Below, one piece after another: positions 1-13,522 of a stretch of 64,000 nucleotides of DNA. The stretch is from Desulfobulbaceae bacterium. GTDB lineage: Bacteria; Desulfobacterota; Desulfobulbia; Desulfobulbales; SURF-16. The notes beneath the pieces are model-generated. The model had not been told where the DNA came from. It did no database searches and saw nothing but the letters and a program-made list of their open reading frames with translations. Positions within the stretch are counted from its first letter, which is position 1. Each line of letters starts with the position of its first letter. Position numbers and translations under genes: made by a program. The stretch covers positions 4,321 to 68,320 of the forward strand of contig JAQIBE010000103.1 of the NCBI GenBank assembly GCA_027859235.1, given 5' to 3'.

Positions 1-1283
1 TTGATGATACTTGGATATATGATGATATAGGCACACCAACGTACCAAGATACTGAAAACAGTATTCTTTACCTGCTCAATCAGGATGATGATGAAGATAT
101 GTGTGAAAGTATTGCTAAGTTTATTAGTGATTCATCTGATTTGAACCGAGATAGTTTTAGCCTAATTCACAGGATTCTTCGGCATAAATTTGATACTTTT
201 GAAGAAATACACAATTTACTAGATAAGAAAAATATAAAATCATTACCAGAGAAAATTGAAATATATGAGGATGTTTCTCTTTATGACAATAACAGTGTGA
301 CAGAAAAACTTGGAATCGATGAAGAGAGCCCACTTAATCACAACTCAGAAGATGATCAATCCTCATTACATGAAAATCATTCCTCAAAAGAGGGTGATAC
401 TCAAAGCGACACTAACACTTCGAGTGGAAAGCAAAGGGAGGCTCAAGCAGGTGTAGAAATTCCTCCACCCATAAAGCCTAAAAAATCAAATCCCTCTAAT
501 AAGGAGGATGATGCTAGTTCGCGTGGAGATCATAATCGGCATGGTCACAATGCGAATCAAAGGAGTCAGAAAGGAGGTGGCACTAATAGATCTGGTGAAG
601 CAAAATCATCCGTAAGCAACATCAGTAAGTTGAATTCAAACGCTAATAGTAAAATAGTTAGTTCTAATGACAGAAAGCCCGTTTATGTAGGTAAAGATAA
701 AGAAGTTGACCCTAATGAACAGCGGGAACAAAAAGAGCGTGCTACTGAAATTGGTAATAGAGGTGAGGATTACGTTTTAGAAAGCTCAACAAACTATCTT
801 CTTTATAAATCAAATAAATTTAAAAAGGCTCCAACAAACAACAAAGGGTACGATATTCTAGAAATAGATTCAAACGGAGATATAGTACGTTACATTGAAG
901 TCAAAACTTTGACAGGAGGGTGGGGAGAAGGAGGTGTTGCTGTCACCGAATCTCAATTGGAGTTTGCTCAGGGATATGACAATTGGTGGTTATTTGTTGT
1001 TGAAAATATAAACACACAAAATACCACTGTGCATATATTTGAGAACCCTGTGCAACAAGCTAACCGTTTTATGTTTGATCATAGCTGGAAACAACTTGCT
1101 GAGACTGCCAAAAAGAATCAGTCAGTAGCACCAAAAGAAGGGGATAAATATCGACTATCGGACGGTATATATGAAGTTAGTAGCATTAAACCTAAGGGGA
1201 AGTTCTATAAATTGATACTTAAAGAAACTCAAACAGGTAAAGAAGTTGCAAAAAAGTTTGATCCTTCTTGGGAGAAATGTTGA
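1..1283 (+). CDS. 3' part of a larger protein, open to the left window edge. A long Ser/Asn/Asp-rich low-complexity linker is followed by a DUF3883-like PD-(D/E)xK nuclease-fold domain and a short C-terminal beta-rich tail.
   Basis: Frame 3 is open from nt 3 with no stop, so the ATG at 99 is probably internal. The block EIGNRGEDYVLE...KGYDILEIDSNGDIVRYIEVKT...TESQLEFA...WWLFVV matches the DUF3883 restriction-endonuclease-like pattern (E..D..EVK) as I remember it. Confidence 0.7.
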   Translation, partial: DDTWIYDDIGTPTYQDTENSILYLLNQDDDEDMCESIAKFISDSSDLNRDSFSLIHRILRHKFDTFEEIHNLLDKKNIKSLPEKIEIYEDVSLYDNNSVTEKLGIDEESPLNHNSEDDQSSLHENHSSKEGDTQSDTNTSSGKQREAQAGVEIPPPIKPKKSNPSNKEDDASSRGDHNRHGHNANQRSQKGGGTNRSGEAKSSVSNISKLNSNANSKIVSSNDRKPVYVGKDKEVDPNEQREQKERATEIGNRGEDYVLESSTNYLLYKSNKFKKAPTNNKGYDILEIDSNGDIVRYIEVKTLTGGWGEGGVAVTESQLEFAQGYDNWWLFVVENINTQNTTVHIFENPVQQANRFMFDHSWKQLAETAKKNQSVAPKEGDKYRLSDGIYEVSSIKPKGKFYKLILKETQTGKEVAKKFDPSWEKC

Positions 1284-2977
1284 TGGTTAATATTATTCCA
1301 GTATTGTCTGTGGAGCAGATTGAAGAGATACCTTCAAGAGCTGAGCAGAAGGTATATAAAGCACTGGTTGAACAATTACCTAATGACTGCTTGGTTGTTC
1401 ACTCTCTTGAATTTATAAAACAAACGTCTAGGTTCAAAAGTCATGGAGATAGAGAAGCTGATTTTGTAATTTTTTCACCACGCTTTGGTGTTTTGGTTGT
1501 TGAGGTCAAAGGTGGTGGTATTAGTTATGATAATTCAATTAATCAGTGGTATTCGATTGATCGAAACAAGGATAAACATGAAATAAAAAATCCCGTTCGG
1601 CAAGCTAAAGATGCGAAATACGAAATAAGAAGCCATCTTCAGCAAAGACTAGGCAATAAAAAACTACTGCTTGCTCATGCCGTAATGTTTCCTGATATTG
1701 AAAATGCAGCTCCTTTGGTTAGCCCTAATATGCCAATTAACATAATAGGGGTTAATAGAAACCTTATTGATTTAAAAAAGTGGGTTACAGAGATTTTTGA
1801 TTACTGGGCAGGCGAACAACCCGTTCATGATGCTCTAGGTGAAAATGGGATCAAGGTTGCTGAACAAATCTACGGGAAGCAGGTTTCCATACGCCCTTCT
1901 TTACGCTCTGCAATAGAGAAAGAAGTTCAAAAACAAATTGAGTTAACTAATCAACAAAAAAATATCCTTCGGCAATTAAAAAGAAGAAAAGAGGCTGTGG
2001 TTGAAGGTGGAGCAGGTACGGGTAAAACAGTTCTGGCTCTAGACCAAGCTCAAACACTAGCAGATCAAGGGCTAAATGTTCTATTTCTTTGTTATAACCA
2101 AAGGCTGGGTAATGCACTCAAGATAAAATCACGGCATATTGACAACTTACACTCTATGGGCTTTCATGAGTTTTGTTCTTGGAGAATCAGACAAGTAGAA
2201 AGTAATACAGAACGTAATTTAATAGAAGAATCTAGGAACATCTACCCTGGAGACGATTTATATGATGTATTGATGCCTGATGCTTTGATTAATAGTTACG
2301 AATTAGCTCCTATTCAATACGATGTAATTTTAATTGATGAGGGACAAGATTTTAAACCTGAGTACTGGTTGGCTATTGAAATGTTGCGAGATCAACATGA
2401 AGATACAAAGCTCTATATCTTTCAGGATAGCAATCAGGCGATTTATACCAATAGTAACGATCTTCCAATTGATTGTGAGCCTTTATTTTTGTTTGATAAT
2501 TGTCGTAACACCAAATACATCCATAATTCTGCCTACCAGTATTACAAAGGAACTGAAGTATATGCTCCAGATTTAGAAGGAGAACCTGTTCGGCTTATAG
2601 AAAAATCTTCCCTGGGACTACAAGCAAAAGAAATTGATAATAAGATATCAAGGTTAATCAATACCGAAATTATAGACCCAGAGGATATTGCTATTGTCGT
2701 AATGGGGCAGTTTCATGAGGCGCAACTACTTTTGGAAAATACAAAAAATAGTCATTTGTGGGCTTTTAAAGAGTTCTCTCCAGTTTCTAAGGTATTAGTA
2801 GAAACGGAAAAAAGGTTTAAAGGATTAGAATCAAAAATTATTTTTCTTTGGATAATTGATGAAGAAGCTATAAATGATAAATTACTCTATGTTTCTATAT
2901 CCCGTGCTCGATTTAGATTGTGGGTAATAGGAACCACACCAATTATTCAAAGAACAAATCTAATGAAATTCACATAA
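1277..2977 (+). CDS. NERD-domain nuclease fused to an SF1 (UvrD/AAA_19-like) helicase
   Basis: N-terminal NERD pattern: EQKVYKAL...HGDREADFVIFSPRFGVLVVEVKGG. Walker A is GGAGTGKT and Walker B is VILIDEGQDF. The C-terminal UvrD_C-like motif is LLYVSISRARFRLWVI. The start is ambiguous (TTG 1268, ATG 1277, ATG 1283). ATG 1283 overlaps the upstream TGA as TGATG, with GGAG 8 nt upstream. Confidence 0.8.
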   Translation: MLMVNIIPVLSVEQIEEIPSRAEQKVYKALVEQLPNDCLVVHSLEFIKQTSRFKSHGDREADFVIFSPRFGVLVVEVKGGGISYDNSINQWYSIDRNKDKHEIKNPVRQAKDAKYEIRSHLQQRLGNKKLLLAHAVMFPDIENAAPLVSPNMPINIIGVNRNLIDLKKWVTEIFDYWAGEQPVHDALGENGIKVAEQIYGKQVSIRPSLRSAIEKEVQKQIELTNQQKNILRQLKRRKEAVVEGGAGTGKTVLALDQAQTLADQGLNVLFLCYNQRLGNALKIKSRHIDNLHSMGFHEFCSWRIRQVESNTERNLIEESRNIYPGDDLYDVLMPDALINSYELAPIQYDVILIDEGQDFKPEYWLAIEMLRDQHEDTKLYIFQDSNQAIYTNSNDLPIDCEPLFLFDNCRNTKYIHNSAYQYYKGTEVYAPDLEGEPVRLIEKSSLGLQAKEIDNKISRLINTEIIDPEDIAIVVMGQFHEAQLLLENTKNSHLWAFKEFSPVSKVLVETEKRFKGLESKIIFLWIIDEEAINDKLLYVSISRARFRLWVIGTTPIIQRTNLMKFT

Positions 2978-3016
2978 TCGGGTAGCCGGAGGTTTTTCTC
3001 CCCCCATCCCCTAACA

Positions 3017-3040
3017 CCCTGCATGCGGCTCCGCACAGGG
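3017..3040 (+). terminator. GC-rich hairpin downstream of the helicase gene (possible terminator, weak U-tract)
   Basis: CCCTG-CA-TGCGG-CT-CCGCA-CAGGG, read directly from the sequence. It is followed by cgtttcatc, so there is no strong T-run. Confidence 0.3.
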
Positions 3041-3219
3041 CGTTTCATCAAGATTACCGGGCCGTAGCCGGATTATGTTGACTTGAGATTGCCATATCCA
3101 AGATTTGATTAGATCAAATTCACCTCCGGTTGAGATGTCTACTGTACATGTATTACGTATATAGAGAGCAACTCCCATGTTTAGTATAGCCCTTTTGACT
3201 GAATACAACAGTGTGAACC

Positions 3220-3257
3220 AATATATTTAAGATAATGTATATTATCTTAAATATATT
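3220..3257. repeat. Perfect 17-bp inverted repeat with a 4-nt spacer in an AT-rich intergenic region
   Basis: AATATATTTAAGATAAT gtat ATTATCTTAAATATATT, read directly. Confidence 0.9.
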
Positions 3258-3360
3258 CGTGTAAATGGTCAGCTTTCTGACTATTTTGATGAGTATGTTG
3301 AGATTTGTGAACGAGCTGACAATAGTGGCGATAATTGTTAGGTATCATTTATTAGGTGTA

Positions 3361-3423
3361 CAGTAGTAACCTCAACCTGGGGTGAGTTGAGAAATCCCTG
3401 AGGTTGGATGTGGCAATGTTAAT
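3361..3423. repeat. Copy 1 of a ~63-bp direct repeat (partner at 9843-9905)
   Basis: cagtagTaaCCtCaacCtGgggtgaGttgagaaatccctgaggttggatgtggcaatgttaat aligns without gaps to 9843-9905. The 3' 37 nt are identical, and the differences cluster in the 5' third. Confidence 0.9.
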
Positions 3424-3464
3424 AGCTAAGAGTAATCGTTAAAAACGATATTCATTGAGCTTTT

Positions 3465-3526
3465 TTGAAGTCTTCAACGCCTATATCACTCTTTTGTATT
3501 GGCGTAGTTGGCTGATTTTGTTGAAG
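3465..3526. repeat. Short attC-like imperfect palindrome directly downstream of the 137-aa gene
   Basis: CTTCAAC (3472-3478) and GTTGAAG (3520-3526) are reverse complements. They enclose an inner ACGCC/GGCGT pair and unpaired stretches. GTTGAAG abuts the stop codon of the minus-strand gene ending at 3529. Confidence 0.4.
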
Positions 3527-3528
3527 TA

Positions 3529-3942
3529 TTAGTAATCATCCAAGTCTGGTCTTGCCTCGTAATAGATAACACTTTCAAAAGTTTCAATAATCACATCTAT
3601 GCTGGGGTAGTCACGAGTATCACCAGAGCCAGACATTGGCTGAATCCATCTATCCATCACCCCCCATGCATCGCTATTATGAAATTCAGATATATATCCT
3701 CTGATCGCCGATATAATGCTAGATGGTGAATCTTCATCGTCTAGATAACAGTATGGAGTCCAACTATCTTTGTTGCCCCATAAAGTACTGGTTATAGATA
3801 CTGCCGAGGGTAGAGAATCGTCATTTTTCCTATCATCTTCCCACTCTTCAAGGAGTGTTTCGAAAACAGTACTGAATTCAGGTAACGGCTTGATAGATTT
3901 CTTTGCTTCAGCGATAGGCTTTTGTGGATCTTGTGATTCCAT
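3529..3942 (-). CDS. Hypothetical small acidic Trp-rich protein (137 aa)
   Basis: ORF with GAGG 7 nt upstream of the ATG. The product is strongly acidic (runs of D/E, ends DLDDY). I recognise no family motif. It lies 162 nt downstream of the Hsp70-like gene on the same strand. Confidence 0.6.
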   Translation of the reverse strand: MESQDPQKPIAEAKKSIKPLPEFSTVFETLLEEWEDDRKNDDSLPSAVSITSTLWGNKDSWTPYCYLDDEDSPSSIISAIRGYISEFHNSDAWGVMDRWIQPMSGSGDTRDYPSIDVIIETFESVIYYEARPDLDDY

Positions 3943-4104
3943 GGCTTGCCTCTATCTAGTTGATGTTCATGGTGTGATCTGAGGGAAGCGCGTAAGAAGG
4001 TATCAATATACTGCCATTGATGATTGCACACGCATAAGAGCACTCAAAATTTATAGTCGACACACTCATTTGATTGGCCACCATCTTTGAATCTGAAAGC
4101 AAAT

Positions 4105-5898
4105 TCAAATTCCTGAAATCGGGTTACGAGCTAAAACAAAACCTCCAGCATAACTACTCATATCTTGAACAATACGTTTTTCATCTATAATATTGGGCAT
4201 GCTTCCGCCAATAGCAACAGCTAGTTGTGGATATACTAAAGCAAGCTCAGGGTCATAATTAAACTCCTCAGGAACCAGAGCCATTTTATCTTTTGGAATA
4301 TTAATTCCGTGGGCAAGAATTACCCCATCTGCAAGCTCTGTCACCATGGGAAGAGTTGCGCCACCTCCTGTTAAAGCAATGGAAATACCATCCTTGCCAT
4401 ATTGCCTAACAACACCTTCTTTCATTGGTTTAAGCACAGCGTCAAACTTTTCTGCCAAATTCTTTTTAAATCGTAAAACCGTTTCATGCTGTAAGAACTC
4501 ATCCCTGTCGACAATGACTCGAGTATCATTAATGAGATTCACAGCACAATCACCATCGCGAAAAAGATCCTCTTTCAATGCTCTTACCTGCATCCTTAAA
4601 TGTTTAACTACATATGGTCGGTCAGGGTCATTATCGCGTATACCTGATTTTTCCATGATCATTTGTTGCAAGGCTGTGTCCAAAACATCTCCAGCTTGAC
4701 GAAGTGACTGATTGCACCCTTCAACAGGAAAGCCATTAAATAAATTCCTTTCCAGATCTTTAACCACAACAAATAAAGCAAGATCAGATGTGCCAGCACC
4801 AACATCAACAACCATAGCCAACCCCCTGAACGGCTCATCTTCTTGGAGTTTCGAACTGGCTACAGCTAATGGTTCTGTAACCCCCTGTGAAACTAAATAA
4901 CTTGGAAGTTCTTCTAGTTTGTCAATTTTGTCCAGAACAGACTTCACATCATAGATGTTTAGTCCGTCTTTCCATTGACCATGAAAAGTATCTGCAACAA
5001 TCTGAGCTTTAATGAGCATCTTTTGAAGTAATTTTTCTCCCCACTCCCGTCTTTCCTGATCCCAAGATGGTAAACCAAAATTACGTACTACATACCTTGA
5101 ACAATCATGAGCTTCCTCAAGCTCAGTACAGGCAAGGTCTGTTAAAAAACCTAAATAAATAATAATAGCATCACCCATTGACAAGGGGACATCCGTAGGA
5201 TTCAAAGAAGCTGACATAGGCTGCTGAAATGGAGTCGATTGCTTGAGACCAAGAATTAATACTTTTTTCAAAGAATCAAAACGCTCTCTGTTATCGAAAG
5301 AATCCGACTGAAGCGAAAGATTGATCGCCTCCTCACCTAGAAAAATATCACCATTATTACTGATCCACAGAGATGATGGGACGGGGTAAATATCCTTGCT
5401 TTCCCCATTTGAAGCCCTATGGCCCAACTTAAGCAACAAATTCTCAACTAATTCACCATCCTCAGCCATAGCAGCAAATGCTTTAGACATTGCCGTACCA
5501 AAATCCAAACACATTGTGATTTCCCTATCTTGGGGAGACTTAAATTCTAATGAAGCAAGATTTAACTTGATTTCAGCTCTTGGTTTTACTTGTGAAACAG
5601 ACTCTGTTTCGATTTTTACTTCTAGCTCAGACTCATCTTTTTCCTCATCACCACCCAGTTCAACTTCAATCTTTGGCTCTTCTTTAGGTTTCGTTTTTTT
5701 ATCAATAGGAGGTGCTGGGGTAATGATTTTTTGGAGATCAGTGGCCTCCGGAGTTGTAAACAACTCTAATGCAACTTGTAATGCCTCAATCTCCATGGCA
5801 GATAAAACACCAGAAAGTGTGCCTTGACCAGTCTCTGAATCTATCACCACACGAGAAAGCAAATTTTTTAACAATAGTTCTGCTATATTCTTATCCAT
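4105..5898 (-). CDS. Hsp70/actin-fold (ASKHA) ATPase: an Hsp70-like nucleotide-binding domain with a unique ~120-aa N-terminal region and no canonical Hsp70 substrate-binding domain
   Basis: Phosphate-1 motif is CLDFGTAMSKA. Phosphate-2 motif is VVDVGAGTSDLALF. Adenosine motif is ALTGGGATLPMV. The N-terminus is a short helical segment followed by a Lys/Glu-rich linker. An AGGGGGG RBS lies in the 14-nt gap after the upstream gene. Confidence 0.85.
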   Translation of the reverse strand: MDKNIAELLLKNLLSRVVIDSETGQGTLSGVLSAMEIEALQVALELFTTPEATDLQKIITPAPPIDKKTKPKEEPKIEVELGGDEEKDESELEVKIETESVSQVKPRAEIKLNLASLEFKSPQDREITMCLDFGTAMSKAFAAMAEDGELVENLLLKLGHRASNGESKDIYPVPSSLWISNNGDIFLGEEAINLSLQSDSFDNRERFDSLKKVLILGLKQSTPFQQPMSASLNPTDVPLSMGDAIIIYLGFLTDLACTELEEAHDCSRYVVRNFGLPSWDQERREWGEKLLQKMLIKAQIVADTFHGQWKDGLNIYDVKSVLDKIDKLEELPSYLVSQGVTEPLAVASSKLQEDEPFRGLAMVVDVGAGTSDLALFVVVKDLERNLFNGFPVEGCNQSLRQAGDVLDTALQQMIMEKSGIRDNDPDRPYVVKHLRMQVRALKEDLFRDGDCAVNLINDTRVIVDRDEFLQHETVLRFKKNLAEKFDAVLKPMKEGVVRQYGKDGISIALTGGGATLPMVTELADGVILAHGINIPKDKMALVPEEFNYDPELALVYPQLAVAIGGSMPNIIDEKRIVQDMSSYAGGFVLARNPISGI

Positions 5899-5912
5899 TG
5901 TCCCCCCTTTGT

Positions 5913-7364
5913 TTACTCTACTTTTTTCACTAAACCCTTTATGATTACAAAAGAAACACCACTATCACGAACTTGCTCCACAACAGGTCGAACAATACAA
6001 ACTTGACGAACCCCATTTCTCTCACCAATTATCTCATGCTCCATGGGGGCATATTCTTCAATATCCCCTGAGGTCCCTCGAACACGAAGATTTTTTCGTT
6101 TTGCCATAACCGCAATAGCATCACAAATTGTCACACCATTTTGCATCAAACGCTGAACACTTTCACCAAGGCGAGGATCGAGCATTTCTATTTCCGGTAA
6201 AATTTGTTGCTTGCCAACACTCTCTAAAGCCTGAAAACGCTGGGCATCAATTAATAATTCAGCCAACTGACAATCATCATTAAGTTGCTGTGATTCACCT
6301 ATGGCAACATCAAGCGGTGCTTCATTTTTCCCTTCCGCTAGCCAATTTTTTACATTATTCGCCACACCTGGCATTTGGGCTAATTTCTTCATTCTCTGGC
6401 GAGCAGTCTTTTTATCACCACAAGCTATAACAAGTTGGCCGGCTAAAGAGTCATCGGTTATGCCTTGTTTGGCAAGTATCAACATGGCTTCAGAAATATC
6501 TTGTACCACCTGTAACAGCGCCTTAGATTGTGGAGCATTTTTAGCCCAGACATTTGTAGGCTGCAGTGACTTAACAACTTTCAACGCAGAATAAGTCGTT
6601 GCTTCTGTGGCTAGGGAGAACCGCAAGCGAACCACTTCATGAATAACACCTGCAACCCCTGCTGTTGTATCTATGAGAGTATCTACTTTTTTAGACACAG
6701 GCACATCTTTAAAAGCAGCCCAACAGAGTGAAGCGAGTTGTTTCCCAGGTTCATCTCCAGGTTCACCTCTTATCTCAGCCATAGCAACTTGTAACCCATC
6801 CATAAGGCGCTTGAGACGTTTTGCTATACTTGTACCAGGATCTTCCGTTTCAGGGATAAAAGAACGAATTACACCCGCTAACTCCATAAGAACTGCAGAT
6901 AGATCTGGCTTCATCATTAACAATGCTTTAAGAAAAGCTACTCGAGACTGCTCTCCAGTCTCTTCATAAACAATAGCATTTGCACAATAATCAACTCCCC
7001 ATTTAGGCTGGACCTGTTCGCAAGCATAGCCCACATAACTGCGGTCGTCAGGTTCTTCCAATAAAAATGGCTCTGGTAATTCTTTGGCTAATGCCACCTG
7101 CAAAGAATCATAAATGGTGGCTCGTAACCGCTTTATGCTTGAAGCAAGACGACCAAGGGTTGCCACAGCGAGGAGACGATCTTTATCCTGGGCAGAGGTG
7201 TCACCAACGGTCTCCAATAAGCCATCAATACCAATCTGAAAACCCTTATCTTTTGAAGCAGCGTGATGTTTTCGGGCCGCAATGAGTTTCCGCAGAGCAT
7301 CATATTTTTCCTGTACCGTGCCCAATGAAAACAAGGTTGTTAATGTTTCCTGTTTATTCTTCAT
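5913..7364 (-). CDS. Hypothetical 483-aa protein, mostly helical by composition, with a short beta-type C-terminal domain. It is the first gene of the Hsp70-like module.
   Basis: Long ORF with a plausible ATG, tightly coupled (14-nt gap) to the Hsp70-like gene. No catalytic motif recognised. The C-terminal ~55 aa resemble the GrpE beta-domain by eye (see findings). Confidence 0.8.
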   Translation of the reverse strand: MKNKQETLTTLFSLGTVQEKYDALRKLIAARKHHAASKDKGFQIGIDGLLETVGDTSAQDKDRLLAVATLGRLASSIKRLRATIYDSLQVALAKELPEPFLLEEPDDRSYVGYACEQVQPKWGVDYCANAIVYEETGEQSRVAFLKALLMMKPDLSAVLMELAGVIRSFIPETEDPGTSIAKRLKRLMDGLQVAMAEIRGEPGDEPGKQLASLCWAAFKDVPVSKKVDTLIDTTAGVAGVIHEVVRLRFSLATEATTYSALKVVKSLQPTNVWAKNAPQSKALLQVVQDISEAMLILAKQGITDDSLAGQLVIACGDKKTARQRMKKLAQMPGVANNVKNWLAEGKNEAPLDVAIGESQQLNDDCQLAELLIDAQRFQALESVGKQQILPEIEMLDPRLGESVQRLMQNGVTICDAIAVMAKRKNLRVRGTSGDIEEYAPMEHEIIGERNGVRQVCIVRPVVEQVRDSGVSFVIIKGLVKKVE

Positions 7365-7524
7365 TGATGTTCAACCATTTATTCAAACAAATTGAGTTAT
7401 TTACCACTCTCGCCAGCCTTGGCGAGACTCTTCGACGATGGCGTGCCAGGATATTTAGGATTTCTAAAGCAATTTCATAATGAGATCTAAAGGGGTGTCA
7501 AAGTCATCCATAAATTTATATCCT

Positions 7525-7559
7525 CAAAGTTGTAATTATACAAACATTGTGAAGATGAA
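7525..7559 (-). promoter_or_regulatory. Candidate promoter region for the 483-aa/Hsp70-like operon
   Basis: On the minus strand there is a TATAAT (7530-7525) and a TTGACA (7559-7554), but with a non-canonical 23-nt spacing. The 10-bp palindrome ATGAATTCAT lies between them. An 8-bp stem hairpin, TCTCGCCA gcct TGGCGAGA, sits in the 5' UTR around 7410-7432. Confidence 0.35.
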
Positions 7560-7654
7560 TTCATGTCAAGAGGCAGAAGTTTTATTAAGTAAAATCTATA
7601 ATAATGATACGGGGTTCCAACCTCAGCGTCTACATTACGGCTCCCCAGCCTGAA

Positions 7655-7900
7655 TCAAATCAAACACCACCCTCGCAAACCCCGCAGCTTCTCCTCAGCC
7701 TCTTCCGGCAGCCCCATCTTCTTGACCTTCTCATACTCGGCCAGCACTGCCTCCTTACTCTCTTCAAGAACCCCTTCCAGACGGCGCAATAGGGTAAAGG
7801 GCAGGATCATCCGGCCATACTGGGACTGTTTAAAATCACCGCGCAATAGGTCGGCAAGAGACCAGATATAGGCGGCGAGGTTGTTGCTTGATTGGGTCAT
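7655..7900 (-). pseudogene. hsdM: N-terminal remnant of a type I restriction-modification methyltransferase (HsdM_N domain only)
   Basis: From the ATG at 7900: [67 protein letters not shown]. This is the conserved HsdM N-terminal pattern. The frame ends after 81 codons, with no methyltransferase catalytic domain anywhere downstream. Confidence 0.7.
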
Positions 7901-7946
7901 GAATCTCTTTTCTTGTATAGGATAAAGGGTAAGGGACAGTGGGCCA

Positions 7947-8948
7947 CTACTCTGCTGGCCAATAGAGCCGGACAAGCGGGATCAGGGCGCGGCCTTCCAG
8001 GTCAAAGTTCTCATAATGAGTGACCACCAGGTTGGCCAGCTCGTCAAGGTCAAGCAGGGTGAGAGGGACATTGGCCCGGTCTGCCTCATACTTGGCATCT
8101 TTGGTAAAGCCGCCTGTGCTGATGTAGAGGGCACGGTCACCTTCTCTGAGGCCACCAAGAAAACTTCTAATATTCTGGGAGCCCATGGCAGATCCTTGTC
8201 GATGTTTGACCTCTGCCTTAATACGGGGTTCTTCCAGGCCTAAGCCATCGGGTGAGGCAAAGACATCCACACCCCGGTCCGGACCTTTAGGTGAAATGCG
8301 GGTACGATACCCCATGCCACGCAGGATGGCGGCGGTCAGCTCCTCCATCTCATCGGCAGAGAGGGCAAGGATCTTGTCCTTGATAAACTCATGGGCCTTG
8401 CCCACCATCTCCTGACGGATCTCGTCCAGAGTGGTCTTTTCATCTTCCAGGCTTTCGTTGCCACTTTCAGGGGATTTCCCACCCTGTAAGGCAGACTGAA
8501 TGTCGGCCCAGACATCTTCGTTAACGGCAAAGAGGGTGAGGGTACTGCCTAAGGAGTTACGAGAGCTGGTTGACAGGTCATCACGTTTGACCCGGCTTTG
8601 CCAATCAACCTCCCTGATATGGGGATAATCTTTGGCAACACCAGGTTTGTATTGGTATTCACTTTTAATGACGCCAACAAGGTATTCACGTTGGCCAGGA
8701 TCGTATGAAATGACGTGGTCGCCGACTTGGACGACAGAACGAAACTTATGAAACATGGCAACAGAGTTGCCGATGGCACCCTTGCGCTCATTGGGGTAGG
8801 TCTGCTTGATGGATTGACGGATTTTCTCAAGTTCGCTGACCTGGCTCATATCCCCCAGCTCTATCCAGCCTACAGCCACATAGCCTTTGGCAAAACTACC
8901 GATAAGTCGTCCACCCTCACCGGCCCGAATCATCCAGACATTTTTCAT
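7947..8948 (-). CDS. mrr: Mrr-family restriction endonuclease (N-terminal DNA-binding-type domain plus C-terminal Mrr_cat PD-(D/E)xK domain)
   Basis: The C-terminal block [60 protein letters not shown] is the classic Mrr catalytic core (D...E-x-K). Confidence 0.8.
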
Positions 8949-9842
8949 TATCGCCTCTCTGTGCCCTTATCAGCATGGCAACGTGTACCATATTTTCACA
9001 TGTAAAAAATAGACCTGGGATCAATCAAATACACAGAAACAACACTTCCGCACATCACAGGCCAATTCCTCACAAAAAAATCCCTTCACATATGAACATA
9101 TTTATCATTGATGTCAAAGGGATATACGTAATAAAGATATGACATGGAGAAGAGCAGCTGCTCGCAAAATAATCACTGAGGGGAGTTTGTCAGGGGCCTG
9201 CAATACGTAGCTTACGTATGACGACATCAGCTATTTCCTACGCATGTGATTTCTGGTGTGTTTTTTTCTTTGTCATAGAGTGTATGAGCTCCCCTTGCCG
9301 CTGGTACGAAACCTCACCATAGCTCAGGAAGGTTGTTAACACTTTTTCATGGCCGAGATTCTGACTCCATGCCTTAAACACTTCAGGGGTATGGCAGACC
9401 TTTTCGCCTAATTACACAAGAATGCCAAAAAGAACTACTAAAGATTTCCACCTCATTAAACCTTGTGGTGGCAAGGGTTGTAGGGGAGCTTGAGGGAAGA
9501 TAGGGCCGCCGCTGTATATGCGGGCCTTGGTTAAAAGCGCAATTGACCGCCCCATAAGGGGAAACGAGCAAAAAGCAAAAAAGGTGGAAGTCGCCCATGG
9601 AAGTCGAAAATATGAGACAAAGCACGAAGAGCCTTTATCACACACCCCCCTAACAGTCGTTATAATACTGTATGTGATCCTATAACACGTGCTGCTGCTG
9701 AGAAAAGAAAGGTTATGTTAAACCTCCCTCATATTAAGCAGAAACAAACTCTATGGGCGACGAGGCAAGGTTGCAGGCAAAATCTAATTTTTTTCCTGAT
9801 TGTCTCTAAATCAGAGCAGATATAGACCAAGCCTGACATTCA

Positions 9843-9905
9843 CAGTAGGAAGGTTAACTTAGGGTGAATTGAGAAATCCCTGAGGTTGGATGTGGCAATG
9901 TTAAT
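9843..9905. repeat. Copy 2 of the ~63-bp direct repeat (partner at 3361-3423)
   Basis: Same alignment as for 3361-3423. This copy is immediately followed by the 178-bp composite repeat. Confidence 0.9.
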
Positions 9906-9909
9906 GTGT

Positions 9910-10087
9910 GAGATAACCGGCTTGCCAACCAGTTGGCTACCAAGTTTAAACGGTTATAATTATTAAAACCCACTCAAGAGAACGCGCGTGCTCGCAAGTC
10001 GGGCTGATTAACTTATTATGTGATTTCAATAAGTTATATTGTTTTTTGGTCAAGCTAGTGTGGAACTTTTCGCACTTCAATGTTGAA
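9910..10087 (-). repeat. 178-bp composite repeat, inverted copy (partner at 11771-11948)
   Basis: The reverse complement aligns end to end with 11771-11948. Three blocks are conserved: TTCAAC-N-TTGAAGTGCGA, ACTTGCGAGCACGCGCGTTCT, and TAACCGTTTRARCTTGGTAGCCAACTGGTTGGCAAGCCGGTTATCTC. The stretches between them are variable. Confidence 0.85.
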
Positions 10088-10150
10088 ACAAAATTGCTCT
10101 AGCCACTTAGTCTGGTGGTTCCTAAAAGTTTTAAAGCTGTATTTTTTATT

Positions 10151-10972
10151 CTAGAGCTTCTTTTCATACTTAAAAACTTTCTCACTCCTTATGTCACTGT
10201 AAGTGTTTCTAATATAATTATCATTTTGTGGAACTGGAATATCCGAAAATTTAAGTGTGAAAAGGTTATCATCTTGGCGACAGTTTTTCCTACTACTGCC
10301 GAACAAACCTTTTTGACTGTAATAATAAAATTCACCTCCATAAAATGAAATTGACTGATTGTAGCTATATTGATCGTTAGCATGAAAACTTATTTCCATT
10401 TGTCCGATTATTGAGTCTGTTTTAATACCTGTTAGCCTAACGCTAATTTTTTTACTTATATATTCACTTGGAATATGAAACCCTTCTTTCCCTTCATTAC
10501 TCTTAATCTTAAAAACTCTAAACATAATAGTATATTCAATTATAGTCCTTATATGATTTCTTAAAGTATGATCATGTTGAGATAAAAAATTAAATTTACT
10601 ATTATATTTACTGGCTTGAGGGAACAAATGAGCTTTGCTGCAATTAAATGTTGACAGTTTAAAACTTTCAATGACTCTATCAGTTGTGGCATCTAAAAAC
10701 TCATTCCATGCTTTAATCTCTTGATCAGATATTGCATGTTTTAGATCTAGTATTTTTTGTTGCTGTATTCTATTTTCGTTTTCTTTTCTCAGTTCTAACT
10801 TTTTTATTTCATTTTCTTTTTCATTTTTGTTGATCCAACTATTGGAAATAGTCATTGTTTTGAAATTAGCAATTATTTTGATATTTTCATTTTTGATTAC
10901 ATCAAAGTTTGTTGATATGTCTTTGCCGTTAATGCTAATAACGCATTGGAGGGTCAGGTCTTGAAAAGCCAT
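10151..10972 (-). CDS. Hypothetical AT-rich orphan protein (274 aa from the ATG at 10972) with a central Lys/Glu/Asn-rich probable coiled coil
   Basis: Long ORF. The ORF-track N-terminal extension (to 11089) reads through repeat sequence and looks non-coding. MAFQDLTLQ is the first credible start. No family recognised. Confidence 0.6.
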   Translation of the reverse strand: MAFQDLTLQCVISINGKDISTNFDVIKNENIKIIANFKTMTISNSWINKNEKENEIKKLELRKENENRIQQQKILDLKHAISDQEIKAWNEFLDATTDRVIESFKLSTFNCSKAHLFPQASKYNSKFNFLSQHDHTLRNHIRTIIEYTIMFRVFKIKSNEGKEGFHIPSEYISKKISVRLTGIKTDSIIGQMEISFHANDQYSYNQSISFYGGEFYYYSQKGLFGSSRKNCRQDDNLFTLKFSDIPVPQNDNYIRNTYSDIRSEKVFKYEKKL

Positions 10973-11138
10973 ATTCTCAAATGGGGAAGGACCTGGGGTC
11001 AGGCTTCCAAGTTGACAAAGTAAGGAAAGAGACAGGCAAAAGAAAAAGTGGGGGTCAGGTCTTGCCCTTTGCACAACAAATAAATGCACCGGGTAAACCG
11101 GTGATTATCGCGTTATGCCCTAAAAATAAAACTTACGC

Positions 11139-11168
11139 TTGCACGCACTATCACCAGTACGGTATAAT
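11139..11168 (+). promoter_or_regulatory. Sigma70-type promoter candidate for the phd/parE pair
   Basis: TTGCAC (11139-11144), an 18-nt spacer, then TATAAT (11163-11168), about 27 nt upstream of the ATG at 11195. Confidence 0.45.
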
Positions 11169-11194
11169 GTACAAAACTCTACACAGGTGATACT

Positions 11195-11476
11195 ATGCAA
11201 AGATTAAGAATCGATCAAGACATTCGATCCATGTCAGAATTTAGAACTGGAATTGCCTCATTTCTCAAACAAGTTCACGACACCAAAAGACCTCTCATCA
11301 TTACCCAACATGGTAAAAGCGCTGCAGTCTTAGTCGACGTTGGTGAATATGAAGCCATGCAGGAAAAAATTGAATTATTAAGCGATATCCATACATCCAT
11401 GAGCCAAATTGAAAACGGCGAGGGAATTAACCATGCGACAGCGAAGGAAATGATCTTAAAGAGAATAGCCAAATGA
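11195..11476 (+). CDS. Type II antitoxin, Phd/YefM family
   Basis: MSEFRTGIASFLKQVHDTKRPLIITQHGKSAAVLVDVGEYEAMQEKIELL is the typical YefM/Phd N-terminal fold sequence. It overlaps the toxin gene by 4 nt (ATGA). Confidence 0.85.
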   Translation: MQRLRIDQDIRSMSEFRTGIASFLKQVHDTKRPLIITQHGKSAAVLVDVGEYEAMQEKIELLSDIHTSMSQIENGEGINHATAKEMILKRIAK

Positions 11477-11769
11477 AAATAATTTGGTCGCCACTAGCTA
11501 TCGATAGAGCAGCAGAAATAGCTGAATACATTTCCCTCGACAATTCCACTGCAGCCAACAAATGGATTGAAAAAATATTTGAAAAAGTCAAAGCCCTATC
11601 AACGTCACCAGAAGTTGGCAGAAAAGTACCAGAAATTAACCGAAAGGAAATTAGAGAATTAATTTTCGGAAATTACCGCATAATTTATAGGCTGGAGACT
11701 GCTAATATTTACATTCTCACTATCCGTCATGGCAAGCAGATATTACCTGTAGATGAAATAATGGTCTAG
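11473..11769 (+). CDS. Type II toxin, ParE/RelE superfamily
   Basis: The pattern IIWSPLAIDRAAEIAEYI...NYRIIYRLETANIYILTIRHGKQ is characteristic of ParE-like toxins. It is coupled to the upstream antitoxin. Confidence 0.85.
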   Translation: MKIIWSPLAIDRAAEIAEYISLDNSTAANKWIEKIFEKVKALSTSPEVGRKVPEINRKEIRELIFGNYRIIYRLETANIYILTIRHGKQILPVDEIMV

Positions 11770-11770
11770 C

Positions 11771-11948
11771 TTCAACTTTGAAGTGCGACAAAATTTAATA
11801 AAAAACCAGGCCACACCAACCTAAGTGCATGAAATTGCATAACAAATCAATCAACCCAACTTGCGAGCACGCGCGTTCTTTTAAGTCAGCTTCAACAATT
11901 TTAACCGTTTGAGCTTGGTAGCCAACTGGTTGGCAAGCCGGTTATCTC
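11771..11948 (+). repeat. 178-bp composite repeat, forward copy (partner at 9910-10087). It contains an attC-like bulged hairpin at 11902-11944.
   Basis: It starts 2 nt after the parE-like stop. In the hairpin, a continuous right arm GTTGGCAAGCCGGTTA pairs with TAACCG-[TTTGA]-GCTT-[GGTA]-GCCAAC, leaving two extrahelical bulges on one arm. Confidence 0.85.
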
Positions 11949-11977
11949 GGCGTTAGCACACAAAAAACCATAACGCC

Positions 11978-12005
11978 TTGCATTATTACCGAGAAGTGTT
12001 ATCAT
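11978..12005 (+). promoter_or_regulatory. Sigma70-type promoter candidate for higBA
   Basis: TTGCAT (11978-11983), a 16-nt spacer, then TATCAT (12000-12005), just upstream of the ATG at 12012. Confidence 0.35.
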
Positions 12006-12011
12006 CTAATT

Positions 12012-12293
12012 ATGATCAAGTCATTCCGGTGTAAAGAGACTCAAAAGATATTCGGCAGGAAATTCTCAAAAAAACTGCCGACAGAAATTCAAGAAACCGC
12101 CAGAATTAAATTGATCATCTTGGATGCGGCAACGTCAATAAACGACTTGAGGGTTCCGCCAGGCAATAGACTTGAAGAATTGAAAGAAAACAGAAAGGGT
12201 CAACATAGCATCAGAATTAACAACCAATGGCGTATCTGTTTTGAATGGAAAAACGGCAACACATTCAATGTAGAAATTGTTGACTATCACTAG
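12012..12293 (+). CDS. higB: Type II toxin HigB (RelE/ParE superfamily, plasmid-maintenance killer type)
   Basis: MIKSFRCKETQKIF...INDLRVPPGNRLEELKENRKGQHSIRINNQWRICFEW is the canonical HigB sequence pattern. The toxin-first gene order is typical of higBA. Confidence 0.85.
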   Translation: MIKSFRCKETQKIFGRKFSKKLPTEIQETARIKLIILDAATSINDLRVPPGNRLEELKENRKGQHSIRINNQWRICFEWKNGNTFNVEIVDYH

Positions 12294-12312
12294 AACGAAT
12301 GAGGTAAAAAAA

Positions 12313-12615
12313 ATGGAAACAAAATCACTACCTCCCATACATCCTGGCAAGATACTGCTCGAAGAATTCTTAGAGCCAATGGGTATCACACAATATCGCT
12401 TAGCCAAGGATACATCTGTGCCCCCAAGAAGAATAAATGAAATTGTTCATCAAAAACGTGCTATTACGGCAGATACAGCATTACGTTTAGGAGTTTTCTT
12501 CAACATGTCTCCTCACTTCTGGATGAACCTTCAAAGCAGATATGAACTGGAAAAAGCAGAAGATCAGCTTGAAGACAAGTTAATGAACGAAGTCCACCAA
12601 TACAAAACTGCATAA
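12313..12615 (+). CDS. higA: HigA antitoxin (XRE-type HTH)
   Basis: PIHPGKILLEEFLEPMGITQYRLAKDTSVPPRRINEIVHQKRAITADTALRLGVFF is the HigA/VapI HTH pattern. I prefer the ATG at 12313 (GAGG RBS) over the ORF-track start at 12277. Confidence 0.85.
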   Translation: METKSLPPIHPGKILLEEFLEPMGITQYRLAKDTSVPPRRINEIVHQKRAITADTALRLGVFFNMSPHFWMNLQSRYELEKAEDQLEDKLMNEVHQYKTA

Positions 12616-12751: not shown

Positions 12752-13522
12752 CTACTCAAGATGAATAAAGAGATCACCACGGGGGACCGCATTTTGCTGA
12801 TGCCCCTTTTGTCTGATGCGAAGGATTTTGCCGGAGGATGAGTGGGGCGGAATTTTGACACGAATTGTCTCTCCCTGCAAGCCTGTCATGACCTGAACCC
12901 ATGTGCCGTCAAAGAGCTCCTGCGGACTTAAGCTAATATGATAATGGAGATCGCCATTCGTCTGTTCGGGTTGCGGAGTAGACGAACCCTTCTGCGAACC
13001 GGAGAGCAGTGAGGCTACCCCCCGGGTGATGTTTTTTACCACGGGGTGGCCAACAAGCTGAGCCAGACCTGCTTTCGACGTTATTTTCCGACCTGCCATG
13101 GAACCGAAAATAGCAAGCCCGCCGAGGAGCAGTCCCTTCCCGCCAAACAGCGTCTGCTTAAAAAACTTCGCGTCAGCCCGCACGCCGCCCCGTTGAAAAT
13201 CCTGAAGGATCGTCTGAAAGAGTTGCTTGAAACGCGGGTCATTGAAGAGATCCCGCAAAATATCATCCTGGGAATACTGGAAGCCCCCGTTGGTCTTTGA
13301 CTGGCGAAACCCGGTGGATTTATAGCGGTCATACTCCCGTTTTTTCACCGGGTCGGTCAACACCCCATACGCCTCGGCAAGGTCCTTAAACTTTGCCTCC
13401 GCCGCAGGATTATCGGGATTGAGATCGGGATGATAGGCCATGGCACGTTTGCGGTACTGTTTCTTGATCTCCGCATCCGTTGCCCCTTTCTCCACCCCCA
13501 GGATCTGATAATAATCCTTCAC
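12752..13522 (-). CDS. J-domain protein (DnaJ/CbpA-like) with a Gly-rich hydrophobic middle segment and a short DnaJ-C-like tail
   Basis: The N-terminal sequence DYYQILGVEKGATDAEIKKQYRKRAMAYHPDLNPDNPAAEAKFKDLAEAYGVLTDPVKKREYD is a J domain with an HPD motif. The start overlaps the cobS stop by 4 nt. Confidence 0.85.
   Translation of the reverse strand: MKDYYQILGVEKGATDAEIKKQYRKRAMAYHPDLNPDNPAAEAKFKDLAEAYGVLTDPVKKREYDRYKSTGFRQSKTNGGFQYSQDDILRDLFNDPRFKQLFQTILQDFQRGGVRADAKFFKQTLFGGKGLLLGGLAIFGSMAGRKITSKAGLAQLVGHPVVKNITRGVASLLSGSQKGSSTPQPEQTNGDLHYHISLSPQELFDGTWVQVMTGLQGETIRVKIPPHSSSGKILRIRQKGHQQNAVPRGDLFIHLE

Follow-up and report, generated by a model that had tools for sequence, protein, structure and literature searches.

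What does an Hsp70-like ATPase do when the gene directly ahead of it encodes a long protein whose C-terminal tail recalls the nucleotide exchange factor GrpE? The question is raised by a 64 000-nucleotide (nt) stretch of contig JAQIBE010000103.1 (the window) from a Desulfobulbaceae metagenome-assembled genome, in whose annotation both proteins are 'hypothetical'. The gene for the partner protein of 483 amino acids (aa) lies at 5913..7364 on the minus strand, with its stop codon at 5913-5915. It is separated by a 14 nt spacer (5899..5912, minus strand) from the gene for the 597-aa ATPase (4105..5898, minus strand). The spacer holds a Shine-Dalgarno-like AAGGGGGG four bases ahead of the ATPase ATG and reads ACAAAGGGGGGACA before it; the short distance and this element argue that the two genes are probably translationally coupled. 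In a scan of PADLOC-DB the 483-aa protein matches hidden Markov models (HMMs) of PDC-M61A (E 9.1e-65 to 7.5e-36) and the 597-aa protein matches PDC-M61B (E 4.7e-142), so that the A-then-B gene order of PDC-M61 is present in adjacent genes of one strand. Pfam returned no significant match for either protein. We describe here a predicted 127-residue GrpE-like module, aa 357-483, which is fused to an armadillo (ARM)/HEAT-like solenoid in the 483-aa protein.

The full-length protein was modelled with AlphaFold2, template-free and from a 28-sequence alignment, and the model has a predicted local distance difference test score (pLDDT) of 89. Its features are all encoded on the minus strand. Residues 1-345 (6330..7364) are all helical and are predicted to form the solenoid (pLDDT about 90-97 there). 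The top Foldseek matches of the full-length model are beta-catenin, importins and Ric-8A (probability up to 0.99, E at least 0.008), with no match at E ≤ 0.001. Pfam HEAT_2 gives a weak match in 4 of 102 diverse family members (mean column identity 30%). A flexible linker follows (aa 346-356, 6297..6329), with pLDDT below 50 at residues 347-356. Beyond it are two long helices (aa 357-395 and 397-423, 6096..6296), which hhalign and Foldseek match to the long helix and the bundle helices of GrpE, and a seven-strand beta domain (aa 424-483, 5916..6095). The strands are predicted at residues 426-429, 435-437, 443-446, 454-459, 461-465, 471-475 and 477-481. The protein ends in RGTSGDIEEYAPMEHEIIGERNGVRQVCIVRPVVEQVRDSGVSFVIIKGLVKKVE, as translated from the open reading frame (ORF) at 5913..7364. 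An earlier note on this DNA, made from the letters alone, had likened the last ~55 residues to the GrpE beta domain; the 50 residues that it quoted are there letter for letter (aa 433-482), and 5916-6095 does encode aa 424-483.

Since the whole-protein Foldseek search was swamped by the solenoid and silent on the tail, we modelled the module separately (aa 357-483, template-free AlphaFold2, 22 sequences). The model has a pLDDT of 92.9 and a predicted template modelling (pTM) score of 0.80, and its secondary structure is as in the full-length model. When it was compared with 350,542 PDB chains by Foldseek, ranks 1-10 and 12 were all taken by GrpE structures from six organisms (E 0.011-0.8, probability up to 0.98, 117-156 aligned columns). 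These were 9a81 (a DnaK-GrpE integrative model), 3a6m (Thermus thermophilus), 8gb3 (Mycobacterium tuberculosis), 1dkg (Escherichia coli), 9bls and 9blt (human GrpEL1) and 4ani (Geobacillus kaustophilus). The best match other than GrpE among the PDB chains has a probability of 0.05, and in a viral structure library the model finds nothing above a probability of 0.47. Taken singly the E-values are modest; what stands out is that nearly all of the matches are GrpE. GrpE is the nucleotide-exchange factor of DnaK and mitochondrial Hsp70 and opens these chaperones for the release of ADP. In its published architecture a long helix leads into a four-helix bundle, and a beta-sheet domain is wedged between subdomains IB and IIB of DnaK (PMC10803776). 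The Foldseek match spans the whole helix-helix-sheet module and reaches beyond the 55-residue tail. The earlier note thus had the beta domain within its GrpE-like region but drew the region too short, the module modelled by AlphaFold2 and matched by Foldseek comprising 127 residues.

Profile comparisons point, if weakly, the same way. The GrpE alignment used for them consists of 74 sequences from metagenome loci (the scan gave 80), mostly 31-50% identical to E. coli GrpE and with a few close relatives among them. Other sources of GrpE were too narrow: the word-indexed homologue search gave only Geobacillus and Enterobacteriaceae, and the viral scan two loci. Aligned with hhalign, 125 family modules score 24.2-25.6 against the 74 GrpE sequences (P 0.0012-0.0021, 66 columns); against a three-sequence GrpE alignment the E-value is 0.17. 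The register, which agrees with what the structures lead one to expect, sets module positions 25-92 on E. coli GrpE 88-159. It pairs iLPEiEmLdPrl with LLPVIDSLDRAL (iLPEiEmL on LLPVIDSL) and GDxVEYSPxEHE with GrpE GExFDPNxHQA. None of 200 column shuffles reaches the hhalign score (mean 12.2, standard deviation 2.4), three of 200 block shuffles about reach it, and the reversed profile scores 11.2.

A dot-plot, that is, an ungapped profile comparison of the family with the 74 diverse GrpE sequences over about 22,000 windows of nine residues, picks out the same elements. The best window sets aa 456-464 on GrpE 183-191 (RTIRPAMVT; z 6.6) and the second-best aa 438-446 on GrpE 149-157 (LDPNVHQAI; z 5.9). 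Both top local profile matches thus fall on signature motifs of GrpE, and these follow each other in the same order in module and GrpE. In 1000 column shuffles the first score is reached twice, the second never, and both together never. The motifs themselves are YAPMEHE (aa 438-444, 6033..6053, minus strand; family consensus YSPxEHE), the counterpart of GrpE FDPxxH(E/Q)A, and IVRPVVE (aa 457-463, 5976..5996, minus strand; family consensus IVRPAVE), the best match to the GrpE (L/I)RPAMV strand, which hhalign pairs with GrpE RllRPAmV. By these profile measures the likeness of the module to GrpE exceeds that of its shuffles.

The motif pattern on which the earlier note had relied needs correction in several places. 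Its G-x-(F/Y) is really G-x4-Y (G433 to Y438), and the gap that it put at about 20 residues after the HE motif is 14 residues, counted after HEII. The sub-motif VVEQV...G is present but weak (dot-plot score 4.1), and the third sub-motif has a stronger rival in IVRPVVE, which matches the GrpE RPAMV strand better. The two signature motifs of the module stand 16 residues closer together than in GrpE. Placed on the final GrpE strand by hhalign, IVRPVVE leaves a 16-residue gap, and the gap-free alignment of the earlier note sets IIKGLV on that strand instead (z 4.8).

The tail is also no chance feature of this one protein, being the most conserved part of its family. The 483-aa protein has 30 close homologues (42-100% identity, aligned end to end), and in 28 of these the tail residues R429, G430, G433, P440, H443, R453, V455, R459, P460, V462, G469 and K476 are invariant. 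Across the 102 diverse members the beta region carries 2.11 bits per column, versus 1.66 for the N-terminal 345 residues; the linker is the least conserved segment (0.95 bits). The 11-residue window RRVRIVRPAVE (453-463) ranks first in the protein for conservation and GDVVEYSPLEH (433-443) third, with P440 conserved in 83% and H443 in 88% of members. Searched against 1.84 billion representative proteins, a profile of the module (aa 357-483) has 276 matches at E ≤ 1e-3. The best 150 of these are mostly 450-550 aa long with the module at the C-terminus; the remainder are shorter and most likely fragments. Ten short or atypical matches were checked (174-243 aa, plus one of 908 aa), and Pfam GrpE is absent from them.

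Several results weigh against relating the module to GrpE. The earlier note had looked to a Pfam GrpE (PF01025) match for support, and there is none for the whole protein (E ≤ 1), for the isolated tail (E ≤ 10) or for any of the 102 family members (E ≤ 10). The NCBIfam scan of the 483-aa protein has no GrpE match either. The Pfam control works, since E. coli GrpE scores 6e-49 and is a near-exact match to PDB 1DKG. A PDB profile search with the full family returned no GrpE, and the best 150 matches of the tail profile among the 1.84 billion representatives include no canonical GrpE and belong to its own family only. With a home-built GrpE HMM and filters off, the window tail scores 3.1 bits and the best member 9.7, and shuffled tails reach up to 6.8. 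The hhalign probability for module versus GrpE is just 13-19%, and over the last 30 residues, in the second half of the beta domain, the earlier note, hhalign and HMMER each arrive at a different alignment. In structural terms the Foldseek template modelling (TM) scores are moderate (0.34-0.54), and no GrpE match of the module in the PDB reaches E ≤ 0.001. GrpE acts as a homodimer that binds an Hsp70 nucleotide-binding domain asymmetrically, and the models of the 483-aa protein and its module are of single chains. The resemblance proposed in the earlier note thus has the fold, the Foldseek ranking and the motif shuffles on its side, with Pfam GrpE and the GrpE HMM on the other. Because the module fails the sequence-profile test, we call it a GrpE-like module and not a member of the GrpE family.

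A separate observation concerns aa 283-390 (6195-6518, minus strand), where the family profile weakly matches the eukaryotic ribosomal protein uS15/S13 (E 0.01-0.95, 19 distinct PDB sequences). Separately, and irrespective of position, Pfam IF2_N is matched in 3 of the 102 family members (best E 1e-6). A small nucleic-acid- or ribosome-related helical domain may lie between the solenoid and the GrpE-like module.

That the adjacent ATPase is of the Hsp70 type, as the earlier note had assumed, is borne out by its family. The 597-aa protein has 375 homologues, and a profile of 45 of them matches the nucleotide-binding domains of Hsp70, Hsc70 and BiP (E 3e-10) over Hsp70 residues 171-358, which make up lobe II including subdomain IIB. 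By the family profile the Hsp70-type nucleotide-binding domain extends over about aa 125-575 (4174..5526, minus strand). The phosphate-1 motif D132-F-G-T135, E342-P, the phosphate-2 motif D365-V-G-A-G-T-S-D372 and the adenosine motif G511-G-G513 are all invariant, which argues that the protein is probably an active ATPase. NCBIfam gives weak matches to HscA, FtsA and MreB. At the sequence level no Hsp70 substrate-binding domain was found in the protein by Pfam or the PDB profile, and about 88 residues follow the last aligned position. Judged by its profile, the ATPase is a divergent Hsp70-type nucleotide-binding domain without a substrate-binding domain. Its N-terminal part (aa 1-124, 5527..5898, minus strand) has no family match in Pfam or NCBIfam; the family consensus shows a conserved segment of ~50 aa (G30 and E36 invariant) and then a charged low-complexity linker.

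How might the two proteins work together? By analogy with GrpE and DnaK, the GrpE-like module would dock on the nucleotide-binding domain of its partner. Its beta domain, inserted as a wedge between subdomains IB and IIB, would thereby control nucleotide occupancy, and the module could be either an exchange factor or a latch keeping the ATPase open. As a client- or trigger-binding surface, the solenoid would take the place of the missing substrate-binding domain. We give about even chances to this model, in which the module docks on the adjacent ATPase and sets its nucleotide state while the solenoid supplies the binding surface. Binding, dimerisation, nucleotide exchange and phage defence by the pair are what we infer from the comparisons given here. 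In GrpE, the parts that touch the substrate-binding domain of DnaK are the N-terminal helix and tails (PMC10803776, PMC12915176). Because GrpE uses those parts on that domain, the shortened first helix of the module and its missing N-terminal tail fit a partner that has no substrate-binding domain.

A GrpE-like shape could, of course, be put to another use. The module might self-associate or bind some other ligand, acting on no Hsp70-type ATPase at all, and the two genes might co-operate in another way. Helical hairpins are a general means of dimerisation, the TM-scores are borderline for a shared fold and the sequence similarity to GrpE is marginal by Pfam and HMM, all of which would suit such a use. 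We nevertheless regard it as unlikely: every top Foldseek match is GrpE with nothing else near, the two signature motifs of GrpE are the best local profile matches, and the partner gene, of Hsp70 type with a IIB subdomain, is never apart from the 483-aa gene in the loci examined. In M. tuberculosis GrpE, moreover, the beta-sheet domain touches DnaK subdomain IB through a His and a Pro (PMC10803776), and we infer that this His is the one of the signature motif. The same marginal scores (no Foldseek match at E ≤ 0.001, an hhalign probability below 20%, HMMER scores near zero) and the disagreement of three alignment methods on the register could even be taken to mean that the likeness to GrpE is a coincidence, in a small conserved beta domain that is unrelated in origin and function, the Foldseek matches then coming from a common helix-then-sheet layout. 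It is hard to see GrpE structures from six organisms taking all but one of the top 12 places among 350,542 chains on that account, or none of 1000 shuffles giving both motif matches and none of 200 column shuffles reaching the hhalign score, and GrpE acts on just one class of protein, to which the genomic partner belongs. Coincidence is therefore very improbable in view of how GrpE ranks in Foldseek, how the shuffles score and what kind of protein the partner is.

A different target is conceivable as well. The module might be directed at DnaK of the host, as a decoy or as a guard on the housekeeping chaperone cycle, sensing or perturbing it when a phage infects. Its GrpE-like fold is compatible with DnaK as target, the pair contains no toxic effector recognisable by Pfam, PADLOC or NCBIfam, and there is a precedent in bNACHT25, which is reported to sense phage via DnaJ (PMC12169576). 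Such a role would leave a co-encoded and coupled, private Hsp70-like ATPase unexplained, and the module is without the elements by which GrpE engages the DnaK substrate-binding domain, namely the long N-terminal helix and the tails (PMC10803776). We consider a host DnaK target improbable.

Set beside GrpE, the module has the layout of long helix, bundle helices and C-terminal beta domain in common, together with counterparts of the DPxxH(E/Q)A and RPAxV motifs and coding beside an Hsp70-type ATPase. It differs in being the C-terminal module of a 483-aa solenoid protein, where GrpE is a free-standing protein of ~200 aa, and in having no N-terminal tail and only about half of the long helix. Its beta domain has seven predicted strands, with ~16 residues absent or the end rearranged, and the GrpE sequence profile does not match it.

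In architecture, the closest published counterpart is CnuD of the CoCoNuT systems. In CnuD/CnuCD, Hsp70-like nucleotide- and substrate-binding domains are fused to HEAT-like repeats (PMC11090510). An Hsp70-like ATPase module, HEAT-like helical repeats and a defence-associated setting are thus shared with the window pair. CnuD is, however, one protein that keeps its substrate-binding domain and has degenerate ATPase motifs; it has no reported GrpE-like element and needs McrBC-type partners (PMC11090510). By description, the window pair is set apart by intact ATPase motifs, the lack of a substrate-binding domain and repeats that reside on a separate protein with a GrpE-like module. In searches of the literature we met neither a GrpE-like domain described for the pair nor any other account of its domains.

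Armadillo-repeat Hsp70 exchange factors that act on lobe II of the nucleotide-binding domain are also familiar, namely HspBP1, Fes1 and Sil1. They share with the 483-aa protein that they are helical-repeat proteins, and they differ in having no GrpE-like domain. None of the three is among the top 50 Foldseek matches of the full-length model or in the PDB profile search, neither of which was a search dedicated to them.

PDC-M61 itself is a phage defence candidate of PADLOC, obtained by guilt-by-embedding (cassette CAS_00187, number 46; Payne et al. 2024, bioRxiv 10.1101/2024.01.29.577857). The text and supplements that are accessible gave no domain annotation for it, and the only other mention found is a negative correlation with prophage number in Pseudomonas aeruginosa isolates. 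Both window proteins match the component models, and six of the related copies share the embedding, being located within Hma systems. The window pair differs in lying outside Hma, as do distant members that are found among housekeeping genes.

The arrangement of the pair was followed through the related loci L083-L092. In the window and in every one of these a gene of the 483-aa type is immediately upstream of the ATPase gene, and in the related loci the spacing ranges from an 11 nt overlap to a 37 nt gap. In six loci (L084-L088 and L092) the pair sits between hmaB (DUF1156 methylase) and hmaC (DUF499) of the Hma systems. The same variable slot in L087 and L088 holds, just upstream of the pair, a two-gene cassette that matches HEC-02 models (an ABC-type ATPase and a 169-aa protein). 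L092 has an ABC ATPase/RloB pair upstream of hmaB and an HEPN_AbiU2 gene between hmaB and the pair. A HEPN_Swt1-SNF2 helicase gene follows hmaC in L087, L088 and L092, and in L083 it comes directly after the pair. In L089 and L091, where the ATPases are 38-41% identical, the pair stands alone among housekeeping genes, in L091 between an H+-pyrophosphatase gene and bamE; the distant partner proteins keep the module (E 5e-29 to 7e-31). Obligate dependence on Hma was rejected because the pair also occurs alone among housekeeping genes, and these two settings may reflect a non-defence role for part of the family. From the varied settings and the constant gene order with its tight spacing it follows that the pair is a mobile, self-contained two-gene cassette. 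A defence role is plausible on the evidence of its embedding. Searches for further copies gave none on plasmids by tblastn, and a genome-representative scan, run with narrow patterns, gave one locus only.

In the window the pair belongs to a low-GC island (1-12600, 30-46% GC versus 52-58% beyond 13 kb) that is packed with defence-type genes. On the plus strand, a NOV_C/TmtA-C-terminal-like ORF (99..1283) overlaps by 16 nt with a NERD+UvrD helicase gene (1268..2977; PADLOC RTasNERD-Hel, 2e-68). Just upstream of the 483-aa gene is a 106-aa ORF that consists of HsdM_N only (7655-7975, minus strand; Pfam 1e-13) and overlaps the end of an Mrr-like PDC-S02 gene (7947..8948, minus strand). The HsdM_N fragment may be a remnant of a type I restriction-modification gene that once enclosed the pair. 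Two type II toxin-antitoxin pairs are found further along the plus strand, Phd/YefM-ParE (11195-11769) and HigB with an HTH antitoxin (12012-12615).

Two neighbours were considered as a third component and rejected. A 137-aa acidic ORF (3529..3942, minus strand), 162 nt downstream of the ATPase gene, has no family match and is not conserved beside the pair in related loci. A 256-aa J-domain protein (12752..13522, minus strand; DnaJ 1.7e-26, partial DnaJ_C), encoded beside cobS at the island edge, might have served as a co-chaperone, but it is 5.4 kb away. No J protein accompanies the pair in L083-L092, and the nearby J-domain gene is therefore probably a coincidence.

GrpE is a free-standing housekeeping co-chaperone. 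If a GrpE-like module does dock on the adjacent ATPase, an Hsp70/exchange-factor pair would here have been repackaged as a portable two-gene unit. With its predicted GrpE-like fold and fixed gene order, the pair has the look of a self-contained machine derived from chaperones, of a type that is new to the literature searched. P440, H443 and R459-P460 are the residues that we single out as targets for mutation. We further speculate, with considerable doubt, that the pair is an autonomous immune module in which an ARM/HEAT sensor is fused to a GrpE-like exchange or latch domain that gates an Hsp70-type ATPase without a substrate-binding domain; once a phage protein is bound, cycles of ATP would serve to sequester or remodel that target or a host factor. 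Were this true, it would be a minimal, ancestral-style Hsp70/exchange-factor machine, and a defence that works without a nuclease, NADase or membrane effector would represent a new mechanistic class of bacterial immunity. Docking of the module on its partner would, in itself, provide a first mechanistic handle on the candidate defence system PDC-M61, and a minimal system in which an exchange factor gates an Hsp70 nucleotide-binding domain without substrate-binding-domain allostery.

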